Notes: generated by a model from the letters alone, not told the origin. Positions 8,742 through 60,404 are shown, counted from the first letter of the stretch. The stretch is DNA of 64,000 nucleotides from Longimicrobiales bacterium (GCA_041690395.1 JAWLHJ010000002.1:564751-628750), one strand, 5' to 3'. Numbers and translations: made by a program.

Positions 8742-9203
8742 TCAGCGGACCCGGAACGTGACCGTGTCGACGACCCACGGCTGGAGCGGGAAGTGCGCAC
8801 CGTCCGCCACAACGGCGATGATGCGATGCTCGCCGGGCGCCACGTTCTCGAACGTGTACGTGGACGACGCGTCGCCCATGTGGATGATGCTGCCCTCCAC
8901 GGTCGGGACCGGCTGGCTCGCCGGCGTCAGGTCGGCGTCGAGATAGAGGTGGTGATGTCCGGTTCCGGCGGTCATGTCCCCGGCCTCGACGATCGGGAAG
9001 CCGTTCACGGAGAGCTCGACCGTGACCGACGAGCCTTCGATCTCGGAGCCCTCGGCGGGCGACAGGATGGTCACGGTGCCGACGGGCTCCGAGGCCATGG
9101 CCGGGGTCTCGCCAGCGGGCATCGAGTCGGTTTCGGAGGTATCACCGCCGCAGGCGGCGAGCGTCAGCGTTAAGGCCAGAGTGAGTCCGAGCGCGTTCTT
9201 CAT
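8742..9203 (-). CDS. DUF4399-like lipoprotein
   Basis: Lipobox LAAC; GTGHHHLYLD, IIHMG, PGEH, ADGAH motifs. Confidence 0.8.
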   Translation of the reverse strand: MKNALGLTLALTLTLAACGGDTSETDSMPAGETPAMASEPVGTVTILSPAEGSEIEGSSVTVELSVNGFPIVEAGDMTAGTGHHHLYLDADLTPASQPVPTVEGSIIHMGDASSTYTFENVAPGEHRIIAVVADGAHFPLQPWVVDTVTFRVR

Positions 9204-54611: not shown

Positions 54612-56372
54612 ATGCGTACGATCCGAATCTCCGGCGCCCTGCTGATCGCGGGTAGCCTGCTCGCCCACGCTCCTCTCGCCGCGCAGTCCCAACAGGCGTC
54701 ACGCTCCATGGGCGGCGGCGACTGCGAGGAGAACGTCTACAACTGCGCGGACACCCCGAACCCGCTACCGGCGGCCAATACCGTCTGGGTCGAGGAGATG
54801 ACCTGGATGGACGTCCGTGACGCGCTGGCGTCGGGCACGGAGACCGTCATCATCCCGACGGGCGGCGTGGAGCCGAACGGCCCGTGGCTCGTGACCGGCA
54901 AGCACAACTACGTGCTGCGCGCCAACTGCGACGCCATCGCCCGCGAGCTCGGCGACGCGCTGTGCGCCCCGATCGTGAAGCTGGTCCCCGAGGGATCGAT
55001 CGACCCGCCGTCCAGCCACATGACGAGCCCCGGCACCCTGTCCGCCACGCAGGAGACGTACGAGGCGCTCCTCACCGACATCGCGCACAGCTTCAAGATG
55101 CACGGCTTCCGCAACATCGTCTTCATCGGCGACAGCGGCGGGAACCAGGCCGGCCAGCGCAACGTCGCCGAGCGGCTGAACGCCATGTGGGACGGCACCG
55201 TGGTGGCGCACGTCCAGGAGTACTACGACTACGCCAGCGTCGACCGGTACATGACCTTCCGCGGCTTCGAGCAGGGTGAGAGCGACGGGCTTCACGACGA
55301 CCCGATCATCACCCTCAACATGCTCGTGGACGACCCCGCTTCGGTGCGCTGGGACGAGCGGGTCGCCGCCGGTCACGCGAGCATCAACGGCGTCTCCATC
55401 GCCGACCGGGTCCAGGCGCTCGAATGGGGCCGGGAGATCGTCGACTTCCGCGCCAGGGAGACGTCACGCCACATCCGGAACGCCATCGCGTACCGCGGCA
55501 CGATTCCTCCGGCCCCGCGTGAGCGGCCGGCCGGGGGTGGCGGCTTCCAGCGCACCGAGCCGCACCCGAACTCCATGGGGGGCGGAGACTGCAACGCGAA
55601 CGAGTACAACTGCGCGGACACCCCGAACCCGCTCCCGCCCGCGAGCACCGTCTGGATCGAGGAGATGACCTGGATGGACGTCCGCGACGCGCTGGCGGAC
55701 GGGAAGACCACGGCCATCATCGCCACCGGCGGCGTGGAGCCGAACGGCCCGTGGCTCGCGACCGGAAAGCATCAGTACGTGCTGCACGCCAACTGTGAGG
55801 CGATCGCCCGTGAGCTGGGCAATGCACTCTGCGCGCCGCTGGTTCCGTTCGTGCCCGAAGGCGGTATCGAGCCGCCCACCGGCCACATGACCAGCCCCGG
55901 CACCATCAGCCTCCGGCAGGAGACGTTCGAGGCGATGCTCACCGACATGGCGAGGAGCCTGCAGGTACACGGCTTCGAAAACGTCGTCTTCATCGGCGAC
56001 AGCGGCGGCAACCAGAGCGGCATGCGGAACGTCGCGGAGCGGCTCGACGCGGCCTGGGGCGGAGCAGCCTCGGCGCACTTCATCCCCGAGTACTACGACT
56101 ACGCGACGGTCGCCGAGCACATGCGCGGCCAGGGGCTCGTGCCGGGCGAGAGCGACAACATGCACGACGATCCGGTGATCACGCTCAACATGTTCATCAC
56201 GGATCCCTACTCGGTGCGCTACGAGGAGCGGCTGAAGACGCGCCAGGCGCATATCAACGGCTTCTCGATCGCGGACCGGGAGGAAGCGCTCCGCCTCGCC
56301 CGCGAGATCGTCGACTTCCGCGCGGGAGTCACGTCCGACGCCATCCGCCGGAGCATCGGCGCCACCAACTGA
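54612..56372 (+). CDS. secreted protein with two tandem creatininase-family domains
   Basis: AGGAG RBS, signal peptide; EEMTWMDV, GGVEPNGP, PGT, GDSGGN each occur twice. Confidence 0.85.
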   Translation: MRTIRISGALLIAGSLLAHAPLAAQSQQASRSMGGGDCEENVYNCADTPNPLPAANTVWVEEMTWMDVRDALASGTETVIIPTGGVEPNGPWLVTGKHNYVLRANCDAIARELGDALCAPIVKLVPEGSIDPPSSHMTSPGTLSATQETYEALLTDIAHSFKMHGFRNIVFIGDSGGNQAGQRNVAERLNAMWDGTVVAHVQEYYDYASVDRYMTFRGFEQGESDGLHDDPIITLNMLVDDPASVRWDERVAAGHASINGVSIADRVQALEWGREIVDFRARETSRHIRNAIAYRGTIPPAPRERPAGGGGFQRTEPHPNSMGGGDCNANEYNCADTPNPLPPASTVWIEEMTWMDVRDALADGKTTAIIATGGVEPNGPWLATGKHQYVLHANCEAIARELGNALCAPLVPFVPEGGIEPPTGHMTSPGTISLRQETFEAMLTDMARSLQVHGFENVVFIGDSGGNQSGMRNVAERLDAAWGGAASAHFIPEYYDYATVAEHMRGQGLVPGESDNMHDDPVITLNMFITDPYSVRYEERLKTRQAHINGFSIADREEALRLAREIVDFRAGVTSDAIRRSIGATN

Positions 56373-56491: not shown

Positions 56492-57109
56492 TCAGGGTGC
56501 CGGCCGCACCCCCATGACCCGGATCGTGGCCCCGTCCACGCAAGCGCTCTCGTCCACGTACTCGGCCTCCAGGACGACCTGCTGGCCCGCGCGGAGCCGG
56601 GAGATCGACCCCACCAGCTCGTAGGCGTAGCCGTCCACGTCCTCGAACGTCGCACACGCCCCGGAGTTGGACAGCACCTGGCCCGTCCGCTCGATCCGCC
56701 CGCGCTCGTCGGTGACGTGGAACGGCCTCGACATCGCGATCGGGCTGAAGATCGCGTTGAAGGCGACGAAGACGATGGGACGCTGCCAGCTGACCGCTTC
56801 CGGCACCGGAAGCGTCACCGCGATCTCCCCGAGCCCGAGCTGCGTCGCCTCGAAGAGGGCCTCGAAGCCGGAGCGCGTCGCGCCCACGCCGACATGGAAC
56901 TTCGCCTCGAGCGGCATGTTGTCCGAGTAGACCTCGACCGGCGTCCCGACCGGACCGCTCCTGGGCGTGATCGACTGGATCTGGAGGAGCGAGTCGACCG
57001 GCTCGATGCGCTGCTGCGCCTCGACCGCGGCGGGGGAAAGCGCGGCCATCACGACCCCGATCAAGGTGGTCCCCAGCGCCCACCGGCGCACCGCTTCGAG
57101 CTGGCCCAT
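56492..57109 (-). CDS. hypothetical exported protein
   Basis: GGGAG RBS, signal peptide (VEA-Q), Ig-like start ITPRSGPVGT, Cys pair. Confidence 0.7.
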   Translation of the reverse strand: MGQLEAVRRWALGTTLIGVVMAALSPAAVEAQQRIEPVDSLLQIQSITPRSGPVGTPVEVYSDNMPLEAKFHVGVGATRSGFEALFEATQLGLGEIAVTLPVPEAVSWQRPIVFVAFNAIFSPIAMSRPFHVTDERGRIERTGQVLSNSGACATFEDVDGYAYELVGSISRLRAGQQVVLEAEYVDESACVDGATIRVMGVRPAP

Positions 57110-57303: not shown

Positions 57304-58152
57304 TCATCCCACCGGGTGCTGCTTCGCGAACTCGAAGTAGAGCTCCTTGGCCCGGTCCCCGACTGGCCCCCGACCGATCTCGCGGTCCTCGAGCTTCACG
57401 CAGGGCACGACCTTACCGTAGTTCCCCGTGCTGAAGATCTCGTCGGCCGCCATGAGCTCCGGCCAGGTGATGCGCGTCTCCACGACCTCCACGCCGTCTT
57501 CCCTGAGCAGACCCTGCACGCGCTGCTTGGTGATCCCGTTCAGGAACGTTCCGTTCGGCGACGGCGTGTAGGCCACGCCGTCCTTCACCATGAACAGATT
57601 CGACGTCGCGAACTCGGCCACGTTGCCGTTCAGATCCAGCTTCACGGCGTTGTCGAAGCCACGGTCCCGCGCCTCGGCGAGCGCACGAGCCACGTTCGGA
57701 TAAAGCGCGGAGGCCTTCGCGTCGGTGACCGCCGTCTCGGGGGATGGCCGGCGGAACGTCGACCGGCACGCGCTGAAGCCGCTGTCGTCGGGCATCGGGA
57801 GCTCGTGGACGACCAGCGCGAACCGTGCGCTGTCCGGCTCCGGAATGATGAAGCCGCCCTCCCCGAAGAACATCGGCCGGATGTAGAGCGCCGTGCCGGC
57901 TGGAAACTTCTTCACGCCCTCCCGGGCCAGCGCCACGATCTCCTCCACCCGCTCCTTCGGCTCGAGCCCCATCTTCCGCGCCGAGTCGATGGCGCGCGCG
58001 GCGTGCAGGTCGAGGTCCGGCGCGAGGCCGTCGAAGGCGCGCGCTCCGTCGAAGACGATCGAGGCGAGCCATACGGCCTGGGTCGTGGATCCGATGAGGG
58101 GAACGTTGCCGGATTGCCACTCGCCGTCGAAGAAGGTCCAGGCAGCACTCAT
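57304..58152 (-). CDS. ilvE: class IV PLP aminotransferase, probably branched-chain amino acid aminotransferase
   Basis: VFDGARAF, YIRP, AKASALY, EFATSNLF, FLNGIT, ADEIFSTGN; ILV-rich attenuator upstream. Confidence 0.85.
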   Translation of the reverse strand: MSAAWTFFDGEWQSGNVPLIGSTTQAVWLASIVFDGARAFDGLAPDLDLHAARAIDSARKMGLEPKERVEEIVALAREGVKKFPAGTALYIRPMFFGEGGFIIPEPDSARFALVVHELPMPDDSGFSACRSTFRRPSPETAVTDAKASALYPNVARALAEARDRGFDNAVKLDLNGNVAEFATSNLFMVKDGVAYTPSPNGTFLNGITKQRVQGLLREDGVEVVETRITWPELMAADEIFSTGNYGKVVPCVKLEDREIGRGPVGDRAKELYFEFAKQHPVG

Positions 58153-58173
58153 GATGTTGGTCTCCCGTGGGTG

Positions 58174-58209
58174 AAAAAAAACGGGACCCCTCGAGGAAGA
58201 GGGGTCCCG
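58174..58209 (-). terminator. attenuator terminator in the aminotransferase leader
   Basis: CGGGACCCCTC-TTCCTC-GAGGGGTCCCG followed by 8 T, ending 21 nt before the ATG. Confidence 0.9.
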
Positions 58210-58236
58210 GTGTCGCGAGCTGTGTGGAGGCGACGT

Positions 58237-58365
58237 CTACGCGCGCGCTCCCCTGCCGCGACCCCTCCCCTCACGGGTGAGCTCTACTACCGGGAGCTCC
58301 GTCCGTACGAGATCGAGGTCGCTGATAAGGCCCAAGAGCACGATGTCCATGGCGTGGTGCGTCAT
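58237..58365 (-). CDS. Ile/Leu/Val-rich leader peptide (42 aa; alternative start 58350)
   Basis: MTHHAMDIVLLGLISDLDLVRTELPVVELTREGRGRGRGARA*; 13 I/L/V codons within positions 8-29. Confidence 0.78.
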   Translation of the reverse strand: MTHHAMDIVLLGLISDLDLVRTELPVVELTREGRGRGRGARA

Positions 58366-58372
58366 GCCGGAG

Positions 58373-58401
58373 ATAAGACACCGCCCCACCCCGGATGTCA
58401 A
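58373..58401 (-). promoter_or_regulatory. sigma70-type promoter for leader and aminotransferase
   Basis: TTGACA-N17-TCTTAT, then 7 nt, then the leader ATG. Confidence 0.65.
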
Positions 58402-58412
58402 GCCGGAGTGAT

Positions 58413-58829
58413 CTACGGCAGCACCTGCACCTCGAACTCATGGTCCCGAGTCACTCCGTCCTCTCCCTCGCCGCGCACCACGACCGTACCCGTCCCCGCC
58501 GAGTAGAACGTGATCGGAGCTTCCACGACGACGCTCCCCCCCGCATGGCACACCGAGTTGACGCCCCGCTGCACGTGCCAGACGGTGATCAGCCGAGTCC
58601 TGACACCCAACTCGTCGATGGTGGGCGCATCTACTGCGTGACACGAGTCGATCAACAGACCCACTTCCACCACTTCCGCCTGCCCGACCACGAAGCTCTC
58701 GGGCAAGACCACCTGAGGCTCCGGGGCAACGGCCAGCGGAGCGATCGTTGGCGGCGCAACGGGTGAGCCGTCAGAGCACGCCGTGAGCAGAAGAGCCACC
58801 AGGGCGGCACCTGCGAGTCCGCGCTGCAT
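58413..58829 (-). CDS. hypothetical lipoprotein
   Basis: GGAGG RBS, lipobox LTAC, Cys pair, beta-rich. Confidence 0.65.
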   Translation of the reverse strand: MQRGLAGAALVALLLTACSDGSPVAPPTIAPLAVAPEPQVVLPESFVVGQAEVVEVGLLIDSCHAVDAPTIDELGVRTRLITVWHVQRGVNSVCHAGGSVVVEAPITFYSAGTGTVVVRGEGEDGVTRDHEFEVQVLP

Positions 58830-58985
58830 GCCCCTCCGGTGGTGAGTGCTCCGTAGGGGGCGATCGGAGAGGTCATGCCACACAGCGAGGCGCTCCGTCG
58901 TAGACGTAGACGTTGAAGGACGCATTTGCGACCTGGCTATCCGCCGAGGTCACAATCACATAGAGCACACCGTGACCGCCACGCA

Positions 58986-59023
58986 AGAAAAACGGCCGAC
59001 CCCCTGGGATGGGGCCGGCCGTT
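58986..59023 (-). terminator. intrinsic terminator after DEAD-box helicase gene
   Basis: AACGGCCGGCCCC...GGGGTCGGCCGTTTTTCT on the minus strand. Confidence 0.75.
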
Positions 59024-59072
59024 CGACCTGAGAAGCGAGGTCGCGCGGTGCGCGCCCCCGTCCAGCGAGCTC

Positions 59073-60404
59073 CTACCGCCGCCCGCGACCACCCCCGCCC
59101 CGCCGACGGCCACGCCCGTTCGACGATCCACCACCACCCGAGCGCTGACCGGACGAAGGCTGCCCGCCGCCGCCGTTGTTCTTCTGTTTCGCGGCCGCAC
59201 GCTTACGATCGTCGGCCTTGCGGGCCCGGATCGCCGCGATCCGCTCGCCGCGCGGCACCTCGAGGGGCTCGTCGGCGCTGGCGCCGTAGGCGAAGCCGTC
59301 GAGCTTCACCTTGGGGATCTTCTGGCCCACCTGGCGCTCGATGCGGCCCAGATCGCCCTCTTCGGCGGGACACACGAAGCTGAACGCCGCACCCGTCGCC
59401 GATGCGCGGCCCGTCCGGCCCACCCGGTGGATGTAGTCCTCCGGGACCTCGGGCAGGTCGAAGTTGACCACGTGCCCGAGCTCCTCCACGTCGATGCCGC
59501 GGGCGGCGACGTCGGTGGCGACCAGCACGCGGAAGTCGCCGGCCTTGAAGCCGTCGAGCGCCTTGGTGCGCTGCGCCTGCGACCGGTTCCCGTGGATCCG
59601 CTCGGCGGGGATGCCGTTCCGCTCGAGCACCTTGGTCAGCCGGTTGGCGCGGTGCTTGGTGCGGGTGAAGACGAGGGCGTCGTCGATGACCCGCTGCTGA
59701 AGGAGCGCGACCAGCAGGTCGCTCTTCAGGTCCGCCGGCACCGGGTAGACCGACTGCTGCACGCCCTCGGCCGGCTTGGCCGTGCGCTGCAGCGCGATGG
59801 TCGCCGGCTGCCGCAGGATCTCACGCGTGAGCGCTTCGATCGGCGGTGGCATCGTGGCGCTGAAGAAGAACGTCTGTTTGGGCTTGGGCACATGCTTCAG
59901 CACCCTCCGGATATCCGGCAGGAAACCCATGTCGAGCATGCGGTCCGCCTCGTCCAGGACGAGGAACTCGAGGCCCGAGAGCTTCGCGTACCCGTACTGG
60001 AAGTGGTCGAGCAGACGGCCGGGGGTGGCGGCGATCAGGTCGACGCCGTTGCGGAAGGCGCGCTCCTGGGGCTTCATACCGACGCCGCCGTAGACGGCCG
60101 CGGCGGTGAGCTTCGTGTGCCGTGCCAGGTCCTCGAAGTCGGCGACGATCTGGAGCGCGAGCTCACGGGTCGGCGCCATGACGAGGGCCCGGGTCGTACC
60201 GCGCGGCGCCTCGAGCAGATGGTTCAGGATCGGAAGCAGGAACGCGGCTGTCTTGCCGCTCCCCGTGGCCGCGCAGGCCAGGAGGTCACGCCCGCCGAGG
60301 GCGTGGGGGATCGCTTCGGACTGGATGGGGGTCGGGCTGGTGAAGCCCATGTCCTCGACGCCTCGGAGGAGGGTCGGGTGCAATTCTAGTGCTGAAAAAG
60401 CCAA
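59073..60404 (-). CDS. DEAD-box RNA helicase (RhlE-like)
   Basis: PTPIQ, ATGSGKT, PTRELA, TPGR, DEAD, SAT, ARGID, HRVGRTGR, Gly/Arg tail; TTG start inferred. Confidence 0.94.
   Translation of the reverse strand: MAFSALELHPTLLRGVEDMGFTSPTPIQSEAIPHALGGRDLLACAATGSGKTAAFLLPILNHLLEAPRGTTRALVMAPTRELALQIVADFEDLARHTKLTAAAVYGGVGMKPQERAFRNGVDLIAATPGRLLDHFQYGYAKLSGLEFLVLDEADRMLDMGFLPDIRRVLKHVPKPKQTFFFSATMPPPIEALTREILRQPATIALQRTAKPAEGVQQSVYPVPADLKSDLLVALLQQRVIDDALVFTRTKHRANRLTKVLERNGIPAERIHGNRSQAQRTKALDGFKAGDFRVLVATDVAARGIDVEELGHVVNFDLPEVPEDYIHRVGRTGRASATGAAFSFVCPAEEGDLGRIERQVGQKIPKVKLDGFAYGASADEPLEVPRGERIAAIRARKADDRKRAAAKQKNNGGGGQPSSGQRSGGGGSSNGRGRRRGGGGRGRR

Follow-up and report, generated by a model that had tools for sequence, protein, structure and literature searches.

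A class IV PLP aminotransferase gene of a Longimicrobiales bacterium is preceded by what is very probably a genuine transcription attenuator. We consider it probable that the element is specific for isoleucine, leucine and valine (ILV) and is switched on by starvation, and reasonably likely that it is a classical attenuator that turns on the aminotransferase, likely a salvage enzyme, when charged Leu-, Val- or Ile-tRNA is low. The mechanism is textbook; the informative part is its setting. All positions are those of the window, the whole stretch of 64,000 nt that was analysed (GCA_041690395.1 JAWLHJ010000002.1:564751-628750), and the element is read on the minus strand. The features are as follows.

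58396..58401, minus strand: -35 hexamer TTGACA of a predicted promoter, read from the sequence (TTGACA or TTGACT in 9/9 orthologue loci)
58373..58378, minus strand: predicted non-canonical -10 hexamer TCTTAT after an N17 spacer (T[CT]TnnT at N17 in 9/9 loci)
58237..58365, minus strand: leader ORF of 42 codons plus TAG, likely leaderless (41-42 codons in 6/9 loci)
58279..58344, minus strand: likely regulatory codons 8-29, with 13 I/L/V (columns 10, 13, 17 and 26 are I/L/V in 6/6 leaders)
58309..58322, minus strand: segment 1, 5' arm of the protector (1:2), pairing with segment 2
58274..58305, minus strand: inner part of the protector hairpin, with its stems and apical loop (predicted fold and six-sequence pairing)
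58256..58272, minus strand: segment 2, predicted to pair with segment 1 or segment 3
58199..58218, minus strand: segment 3, 3' arm of a bipartite antiterminator, overlapping the 5' arm of the terminator (94% paired, two two-sided changes)
58182..58209, minus strand: intrinsic terminator stem-loop of 11 bp (terminator in 9/9 loci)
58174..58181, minus strand: U8 tract, read from the sequence
58161..58166, minus strand: predicted ribosome-binding site GGGAGA (invariant among six aligned loci)
57304..58152, minus strand: the regulated gene, a class IV PLP aminotransferase of the PRK13356 family, 282 aa (NF009896, 410.6 bits against a cut-off of 262)
56492..57109, minus strand: probably exported protein without assigned function, after a 195-nt gap behind the aminotransferase

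A preliminary description, made from the sequence alone, had listed the promoter, ORF, terminator and U8, and all were found on the minus strand where it placed them. The aminotransferase ATG, at 58152, lies behind the GGGAGA motif. The same description called the aminotransferase 'stand-alone', which is not certain: the next gene runs in the same direction, no terminator was detected in the 195 nt that separate the two, and this gene for a probably exported protein may be co-transcribed with the aminotransferase. A similar gene is found behind the aminotransferase in 7/7 relative loci listed; the protein itself has no Pfam or NCBIfam match. On the other side, this genome alone carries a lipoprotein-like ORF (58413-58829, minus strand, no family match) between the leader promoter and a DEAD-box helicase gene; four relatives have the helicase directly upstream. 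A protein with two tandem creatininase domains is encoded on the plus strand (54612-56372), convergently with the aminotransferase unit, and several relatives share this synteny.

Promoter, leader ORF and their conservation

The TTGACA hexamer (58401-58396) is separated by 17 nt from TCTTAT (58378-58373), and the leader ATG follows 7 nt further on, at 58365. TCTTAT has no A at position 2 of the -10, and a consensus promoter scan called no site here. Genome-wide there are 155 intergenic TTGAC[AT] sites, 15 with TAnnnT at a 16-18 spacer and two with the TYTnnT form, which at N17 is retained in all nine orthologue loci. The 7-nt spacing between the -10 and the ATG suggests that the leader ORF is likely to start leaderless. 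The distance is 5-7 nt in five of the six leader loci; in the sixth the ATG is 36 nt from the -10, behind a purine-rich SD-like stretch. In 7/9 loci the -35 and the sequence around the -10 (58373-58401) also make up an imperfect inverted repeat, TGACA-N15-TGTCT, possibly an operator, possibly no more than the promoter itself.

The leader ORF ends with TAG at 58239-58237. It carries, as had been described, 13 I/L/V within codons 8-29, including one TTG, one CTT and three GTA. The expectation that these codons are rare was borne out: in 2704 crudely called genes of this genome, GTA accounts for 3% of Val, CTT and TTG for 4% each of Leu, and ATT for 5% of Ile. GTA, CTT and ATT recur in the relatives; TTG is not conserved. 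The ILV content of the whole ORF (13/41) is not elevated over the proteome rate of 22.7% (p=0.12). For 13 ILV in a 22-codon window, p=2.6e-4, the window having been picked post hoc, and for the five rare ILV codons p=1e-3; none of 7177 stop-free nucleotide shuffles had 13 ILV. Across the six leaders, p ranges from 0.05 to 0.43 for total ILV against the proteome and from 1e-5 to 0.04 for rare ILV codons. The ILV codons are scattered, not in runs. In a relaxed scan of the genome, which covered 627 terminator-like sites and gave 141 uORF rows, this leader ranks only 25th-26th by codon enrichment. Among the 30 rows listed of these 141, a TTGAC-type -35 at leaderless distance occurs only in this leader and in one His leader. 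By itself the single sequence is suggestive; conservation carries the argument. A start at Met6 was rejected, as it is not conserved, and a Pfam search with the leader peptide returned no families.

Orthologues 79-93% identical to the aminotransferase were found in 6/6 same-genus genomes, the other 34 genomes of the search giving partial or distant matches at most, and metagenome contigs supplied two further loci. The identity of the relatives is consistent with the probable Gemmatimonadota host proposed at the outset. A 41-42-codon ORF is present in 6/9 loci. It is indel-free, and its stop falls in a single alignment column (TAG in five, TAA in one). This is so at a divergence of about 33% per site among the six leaders, with indels in the spacers and none within the ORF; the leader peptides of the relatives are 44-62% identical to this one. 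All six have I/L/V in columns 10, 13, 17 and 26. Val26 (58290-58288), which sits unpaired in the apical loop of the protector, is encoded by GTA in five leaders and by GTT in the sixth; Val20 (58308-58306), in an internal loop, is GTA in four. The G005 leader retains ten ILV, having lost Ile14, Leu19 and Val20. Alignment of the orthologue regions had been proposed as a check on the attenuator, and it gave conserved ILV columns in the six leaders and compensatory changes in the protector and antiterminator stems.

The peptides share a conserved R-x-E-L-P-V stretch and vary in their C-terminal residues (A/L/V). Divergence is equal at the three codon positions (0.33/0.32/0.34), with 92 synonymous and 302 non-synonymous differences among 600 codon pairs, and the peptide sequence itself is therefore not under selection. 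This is as expected if the frame, the sensor codons and the RNA fold matter but the peptide does not.

The remaining three of the nine loci (G002, G001 and L049) have the promoter and then the terminator, with the leader ORF absent; these ORF-less regions are L002:1402-1503, L007:1354-1503 and L049:216-363. Two of them carry a small GC hairpin immediately before the terminator. A quick tree (89 rows, comprising P0002-P0060, P0068 and P0087 of 120 listed proteins plus selected loci, no clade test) places G002, whose protein is 93% identical, inside the leader-bearing clade, and its state is therefore read as loss of the ORF; G001 and L049 fall just outside, with support of 81.

When leader DNA was compared with 61 genomes, strong matches were confined to the genus. 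A peptide HMM searched against 301 genomes of the order gave strong matches only in the three genus genomes sampled, and four weak ones (E 0.004-0.01). A covariance model search of the genome itself found no second leader copy. Among contigs assembled from RNA runs, one of 348 nt spans 58157-58492; it crosses promoter and terminator alike, may therefore be DNA, and does not address termination.

RNA structure and the proposed switch

The terminator (58209-58182) has 11 bp and a predicted energy of -25.0 kcal/mol and is followed directly by U8 (58181-58174). It is present in 9/9 loci, at -15.6 to -26.3 kcal/mol. Upstream of it, two mutually exclusive helices are predicted to compete for segment 2. 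In the protector hairpin, segment 1 (codons 15-19) pairs with segment 2 (codons 32-37): over the six sequences 94% of 126 cells are paired, four pairs show two-sided changes, and 2/500 shuffles score as high. In the bipartite antiterminator (2:3), 94% of 90 cells are paired with two two-sided changes, 31/500 shuffles score as high, and slid controls reach 37-61% paired; the 2:3 fold has -37.6 to -43.3 kcal/mol across the six loci. These structure controls are indicative only, since they use six related sequences and structures drawn from those same sequences, and the antiterminator covariation by itself is weak.

The preliminary description had proposed an antiterminator formed through 58256-58272. 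Its exclusive pairing with the terminator arm stands; the register proposed is possible in this sequence but is the weaker one over the six (86% paired, no two-sided changes, against 94% and two for the bipartite form) and was set aside as the main register. The attenuator had also been called complete. Its components are indeed there, but the best-supported helix, the protector (1:2), was missing from that account. An Rfam scan of 57900-59100 at E<=10 gave eight matches, all of them well short of their gathering scores and none to a leader family, and the region therefore shows no known riboswitch, T-box or leader family.

The effect of a translating ribosome was modelled by masking 30 nt around it in each of the six sequences, with the transcript ending in the terminator loop. 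The mean probability of the antiterminator was 0.51-0.92 with A-site codons 8-27, 0.00-0.01 with codons 30-38, and 0.26 without a ribosome. Folding with leader codons masked, suggested earlier as a check, thus agrees with the proposal: in the model a ribosome at codons 8-27 favours the antiterminator and one at codons 30-38 abolishes it. With the ribosome at codon 42, the protector re-formed in 5/6 models (P>=0.5). A ribosome placed on the stop codon let the antiterminator come back in 4/6 models (mean 0.59), which counts against the switch; and for the full transcript at equilibrium the terminator was dominant at each ribosome position tested (P 0.87-1.0). Because equilibrium favours the terminator and the antiterminator returns at the stop codon, the switch hinges on the order of folding. 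That folding order decides the outcome is a standard assumption for attenuators, and the starvation-on logic fits, provided it holds here. The original proposal, a ribosome-mediated attenuator in which stalling at ILV codons frees the antiterminator, is thereby supported both by conservation and by the modelling.

The mechanism that we propose is as follows. Transcription would start at or just before the leader ATG, as the spacing suggests, so that the ribosome loads without a 5' leader. When ILV are plentiful, the ribosome would pass codons 30-38, covering segment 2, and the conserved protector (1:2) would refold before segment 3 is made, a matter of presumed timing; the 3:4 terminator would then form and RNA polymerase would stop at U8. 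Under starvation, the modelled ribosome pauses at the Leu, Val or Ile codons 10-27 and covers segment 1. Segments 2 and 3 would then pair, sequestering the terminator 5' arm and letting transcription proceed into the aminotransferase.

The aminotransferase and branched-chain metabolism in the genus

The preliminary description called the regulated gene 'ilvE-like'. It is an aminotransferase, but the term understates its distance from ilvE: it is a PRK13356 xenolog, 30% identical to the canonical ilvE of its own genome and with a changed active site. It scores below the canonical IlvE cut-offs (151 against 245.55 bits for TIGR01122; 158.5 against 279 bits for PRK06606). The canonical ilvE_I of this genome is on another contig (C6) and has no terminator upstream. 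Compared with E. coli IlvE, the PRK13356 protein has WLAS for HYGT, FDG for FEG, GFII for GMGV and GNYG for GTAA, four motifs that we take to be important in the active site. The PLP lysine and the Tyr that follows it are retained, as is the Tyr-x-Arg pair (YIR); the carboxylate site of BCAT is a Tyr polarised by an Arg (PMC5131300). The closest structures by sequence are 4JXU (Sinorhizobium meliloti) and 4TVI (Brucella abortus), both listed in that paper as putative aminotransferases, with PDB entries without characterisation forming extra subgroups (PMC5131300).

PRK13356 is a large family (7289/8000 scored candidates at E<=1e-80) with two solved structures, and our literature search found no biochemical study of it. 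The balance is somewhat in favour of this member acting on branched-chain substrates. Two other homologues, L083 and L086, adjoin what by eye are presumably homoserine O-succinyltransferase-type and amino acid:carrier-protein ligase-like genes; such neighbours hint at other substrates in that branch.

Within the phylum, PRK13356 is above cut-off in 5/401 genomes. The nearest named homologues outside the genus are from Alphaproteobacteria, at 60-67% identity, and in the quick tree the genus copies form one clade among alphaproteobacterial proteins. The gene was likely gained by horizontal transfer; as the tree is quick and carries no clade test, the donor is not established. A leader-model search covered 74 sources, of which 68 are homologue loci outside the genus clade and the other six are L048 and five loci of this genome. 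None of the 68 matched, and a terminator-like hairpin within 200 nt upstream was found in 1/62 homologue loci tested. The leader was therefore probably attached within the genus.

The genome is 98% complete. A biosynthetic role, which the preliminary description implied, fails on gene content: ilvB is found in 0/7 genomes of the genus against 89/200 in the family, leuA in 0/7 against 92/200, and ilvC is above cut-off in 0/7. In the five genus genomes tested for each, leuC and leuB are below cut-off throughout, with one borderline protein (373 against 393 bits for the 3-isopropylmalate dehydrogenase model), and ilvD is intact throughout. In this genome the intact ilvD stands alone, without ilvB or ilvC, at G000:C2:538026-539719 (L105:8026-9720) and with no terminator upstream. 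Completeness is below 88% for two of the seven genus genomes, but assembly gaps are an unlikely cause of seven joint absences.

With ilvB, ilvC and leuA absent, an ILV-starvation switch cannot raise de novo synthesis. The simplest purpose would be salvage of 2-oxo or dihydroxy acids. The lone ilvD and the aminotransferase would cover the two final steps of the Val/Ile route, kept as the gene content shows, and we put at about even the chance that the enzyme re-aminates scavenged or recycled branched-chain 2-oxo acids. Our literature search returned nothing directly on salvage via ilvD and ilvE. In the Gemmatimonadota order Palauibacterales, ILV auxotrophy is reportedly common (PMC10469786).

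Sibling leaders, alternative explanations and significance

The preliminary description put forward attenuation directly on an aminotransferase gene as something apparently new. Its novelty is lower than claimed, since such leaders are common across the family. Among 15 weak matches inspected from a covariance model search of 151 family genomes, three are leaders before leuA or hisG. A shared terminator motif occurs in 27/30 leuA upstream regions, and about 17 of the 30, by eye, have an ATG ORF of at least 25% ILV ahead of the terminator. Of 29 regions upstream of ilvB, seven show, again by eye, an ILV leader followed by a terminator; the others appear operon-internal or divergent. A leaderless hisG leader with His runs is present in 5/5 genus genomes tested, including this one, where the candidate attenuator (L232; G000:C2:746952 onward, plus strand) has a TTGACG-type promoter, a leaderless 26-codon ORF with six His and a terminator. 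His leaders like it were seen in G001, G002, G003 and G005, and also in G004 and G647. With His before hisG and Leu/ILV before leuA and ilvB, the family matches the codons of a leader to the gene behind it.

These leaders share with the present one a TTGAC-type promoter, a similar terminator core, a purine-rich antiterminator arm and a short ORF that ends 50-70 nt before a GC-rich terminator. They head biosynthetic operons such as leuA-leuB-ilvE, leuA-leuB-ilvC-ilvE-leuCD or ilvB-ilvH-ilvC-ilvE-ilvD (names other than leuA, ilvB and aminotransferases being read from N-terminal sequences), whereas here the leader stands before a gene of another family. Its 5' coding part resembles those of L173 and L205. 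In 68 sibling loci the model gave 28 matches at E<=1, of which 26 are at leader positions (13 leuA, six ilvB, five his and two short aminotransferase forms), many of them mostly through the terminator, and His leaders also match the whole model. An HMM of the 5' coding part gave only four matches among 42 regions, all leu/ilv leaders; at 13.7 bits against a genome background of 13.9, such a match is not significant at genome scale. For four chosen leaders, 0, 1, 1 and 6 of 400 codon shuffles reached the score, and two others were unmatched. In the reverse direction, an HMM built from 27 leuA leaders scored this leader at 1.5 bits, did not find it in the genome at E<=10, and gave 10-12 bits for the best genus copies; this failure counts against an easy proof of homology. 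That the leader was recycled from a lost leu/ilv operon, a family leader of that kind having become attached to the incoming gene, we hold only marginally more probable than its having another origin.

Some further leaders were noted in passing. L170-L199, L201, L205, L207, L216, L218, L222, L229 and L156 are Leu/ILV leaders before leuA or ilvB with a common terminator core. Several family leu/ilv leaders have no obvious ATG, or start with TTG or GTG, and some may be decayed. The scan also brought up two short ORFs rich in Met and Cys, alike in their tails and each with a strong terminator, candidate sulfur-amino-acid attenuators, both on the minus strand (L235, G000:C6 near 9089-9137; L236, G000:C1 near 597557); the genes behind them encode a TonB-dependent receptor and an ATP-grasp (RimK-like) protein. 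An array of 17 tRNA genes occupies about 3.3 kb at G000:C1:919395-922679.

Among known systems, enterobacterial ilvL (ilvGMEDA) and ivbL (ilvBN) have a short ORF with ILV codons, a protector, an antiterminator, a terminator and a U tract and are switched on by starvation; E. coli ilvE sits inside the attenuated ilvGMEDA operon. The present element has in common with them the ILV ORF, the three helices, the U tract and the proposed starvation-on logic. Unlike these leaders with their codon runs, it has codons dispersed over a 42-codon ORF and a start that is likely leaderless; its first gene is a PRK13356 aminotransferase, and its host is without ilvB, ilvC and leuA. The Vitreschak 2004 and Lopatovskaya 2010 attenuator surveys may list aminotransferase-first cases. 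In the openly accessible literature, our search turned up neither this element nor any other attenuator in Gemmatimonadota. The Corynebacterium ilvBNC attenuator has anti-antiterminator, antiterminator and terminator hairpins (PMC11857589; PMC10272879). The ilvBNC/ilvB-II motif shares with our element the three-hairpin model, a uORF whose start, stop and frame are conserved along with a few I/L/V positions, and a high-GC host. Its uORF is usually of 15-17 aa and lies before acetolactate synthase in prototrophs (PMC11857589; PMC10272879); ours is of 41-42 aa and lies before a likely xenologous aminotransferase in an auxotrophic genus. The mycobacterial polycysteine attenuators reportedly likewise use a leaderless short ORF as sensor, for another amino acid (10.1101/834739), whereas a clear intrinsic terminator and antiterminator are present here.

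Several other explanations were weighed. One is that the attenuator is real but senses a general slowing of ribosomes, caused by shortage of any amino acid or by a translation inhibitor, as does the mycobacterial whiB7 uORF, a ribosome-stalling sensor, the ILV codons being inherited or set by the fold. We think this unlikely, although the ILV content of the whole ORF is not significant, the antitermination zone is broad (codons 5-27, any stall there being effective), and the codons of Arg21 and Glu23 are as invariant as the Leu and Val codons. Against it, Glu23 and two bases of Arg21 form protector pairs, whereas the rare Val codons are kept at unpaired positions; the sibling leaders fit their targets (His before hisG, Leu before leuA), and the gene downstream is annotated as a branched-chain aminotransferase. 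In Streptomyces coelicolor, mutations of similar ilvB leader codons had no effect, and such leaders did not behave classically (PMC1262725), which is a further point for general slowing and a caution for the main reading. It is also improbable, in our estimate, that an ILV-sensing leader governs an enzyme of different chemistry, acting on another amino or oxo acid, a D-amino acid or an amine and meeting a different need tied to ILV shortage. The putative status of 4JXU and 4TVI, the extra subgroups, the four altered motifs and the canonical ilvE already in the genome would all allow it; the retained YIR, PLP lysine and following Tyr, with Tyr-Arg as the BCAT carboxylate site, and the NCBIfam family name, which is branched-chain aminotransferase, speak for a branched-chain enzyme, as does the ILV leader in front, an independent though circumstantial support.

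That the locus is a decaying relic, in which the terminator merely keeps expression low while neither the ORF nor the alternative helices remain in use, seems quite improbable. The three loci with promoter and terminator but without the ORF, the loss in G002 inside the leader-bearing clade and the absence from the genus of the biosynthetic operon that such leaders serve speak for it; yet six leaders at 44-62% peptide identity keep the frame, the stop position, the rare codons and the compensated helices, and one has an SD-like motif where its ATG is far from the promoter. Reverse logic, with a TnaC-like arrest peptide that stalls when branched-chain amino acids are abundant and so induces a catabolic transaminase, is very improbable. 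The absence of third-position bias (it is not the peptide sequence that is conserved), the variable C-terminal residues and a layout like that of the starvation-type leu and his leaders of the family all weigh more with us than the points that suit it, namely that an auxotroph plausibly catabolises ILV, that the R-x-E-L-P-V stretch is conserved and that a ribosome at the stop codon permits the antiterminator in 4/6 models. The starvation-on attenuator remains the reading that we prefer. A fuller history, in which the genus lost its leu/ilv operon and rewired the attenuator to an alphaproteobacterial aminotransferase, as a starvation switch for the salvage of cross-fed oxo or dihydroxy acids together with the lone ilvD, is offered as a tentative proposal, to which we give well under even weight.

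A gauge of ILV in a cell without ilvB, ilvC and leuA would mean that the cell has a response to ILV shortage other than synthesis, and points to salvage of precursors. For the uncultured genus this gives a cultivation hint, that branched-chain 2-oxo or dihydroxy acids might be supplied, and the ORF-less loci are natural leader-deleted variants that could be used as controls. The leader is also evidence on the PRK13356 substrate that is independent of the enzyme. As a probable attenuator, the element extends leader-peptide attenuation to Gemmatimonadota. If the recycling is true, it would be the first regulatory evidence for a PRK13356 protein acting on branched-chain substrates, and the element would belong with the Leu/Ilv, His and Met/Cys leader attenuators of Gemmatimonadota, a set not described so far.
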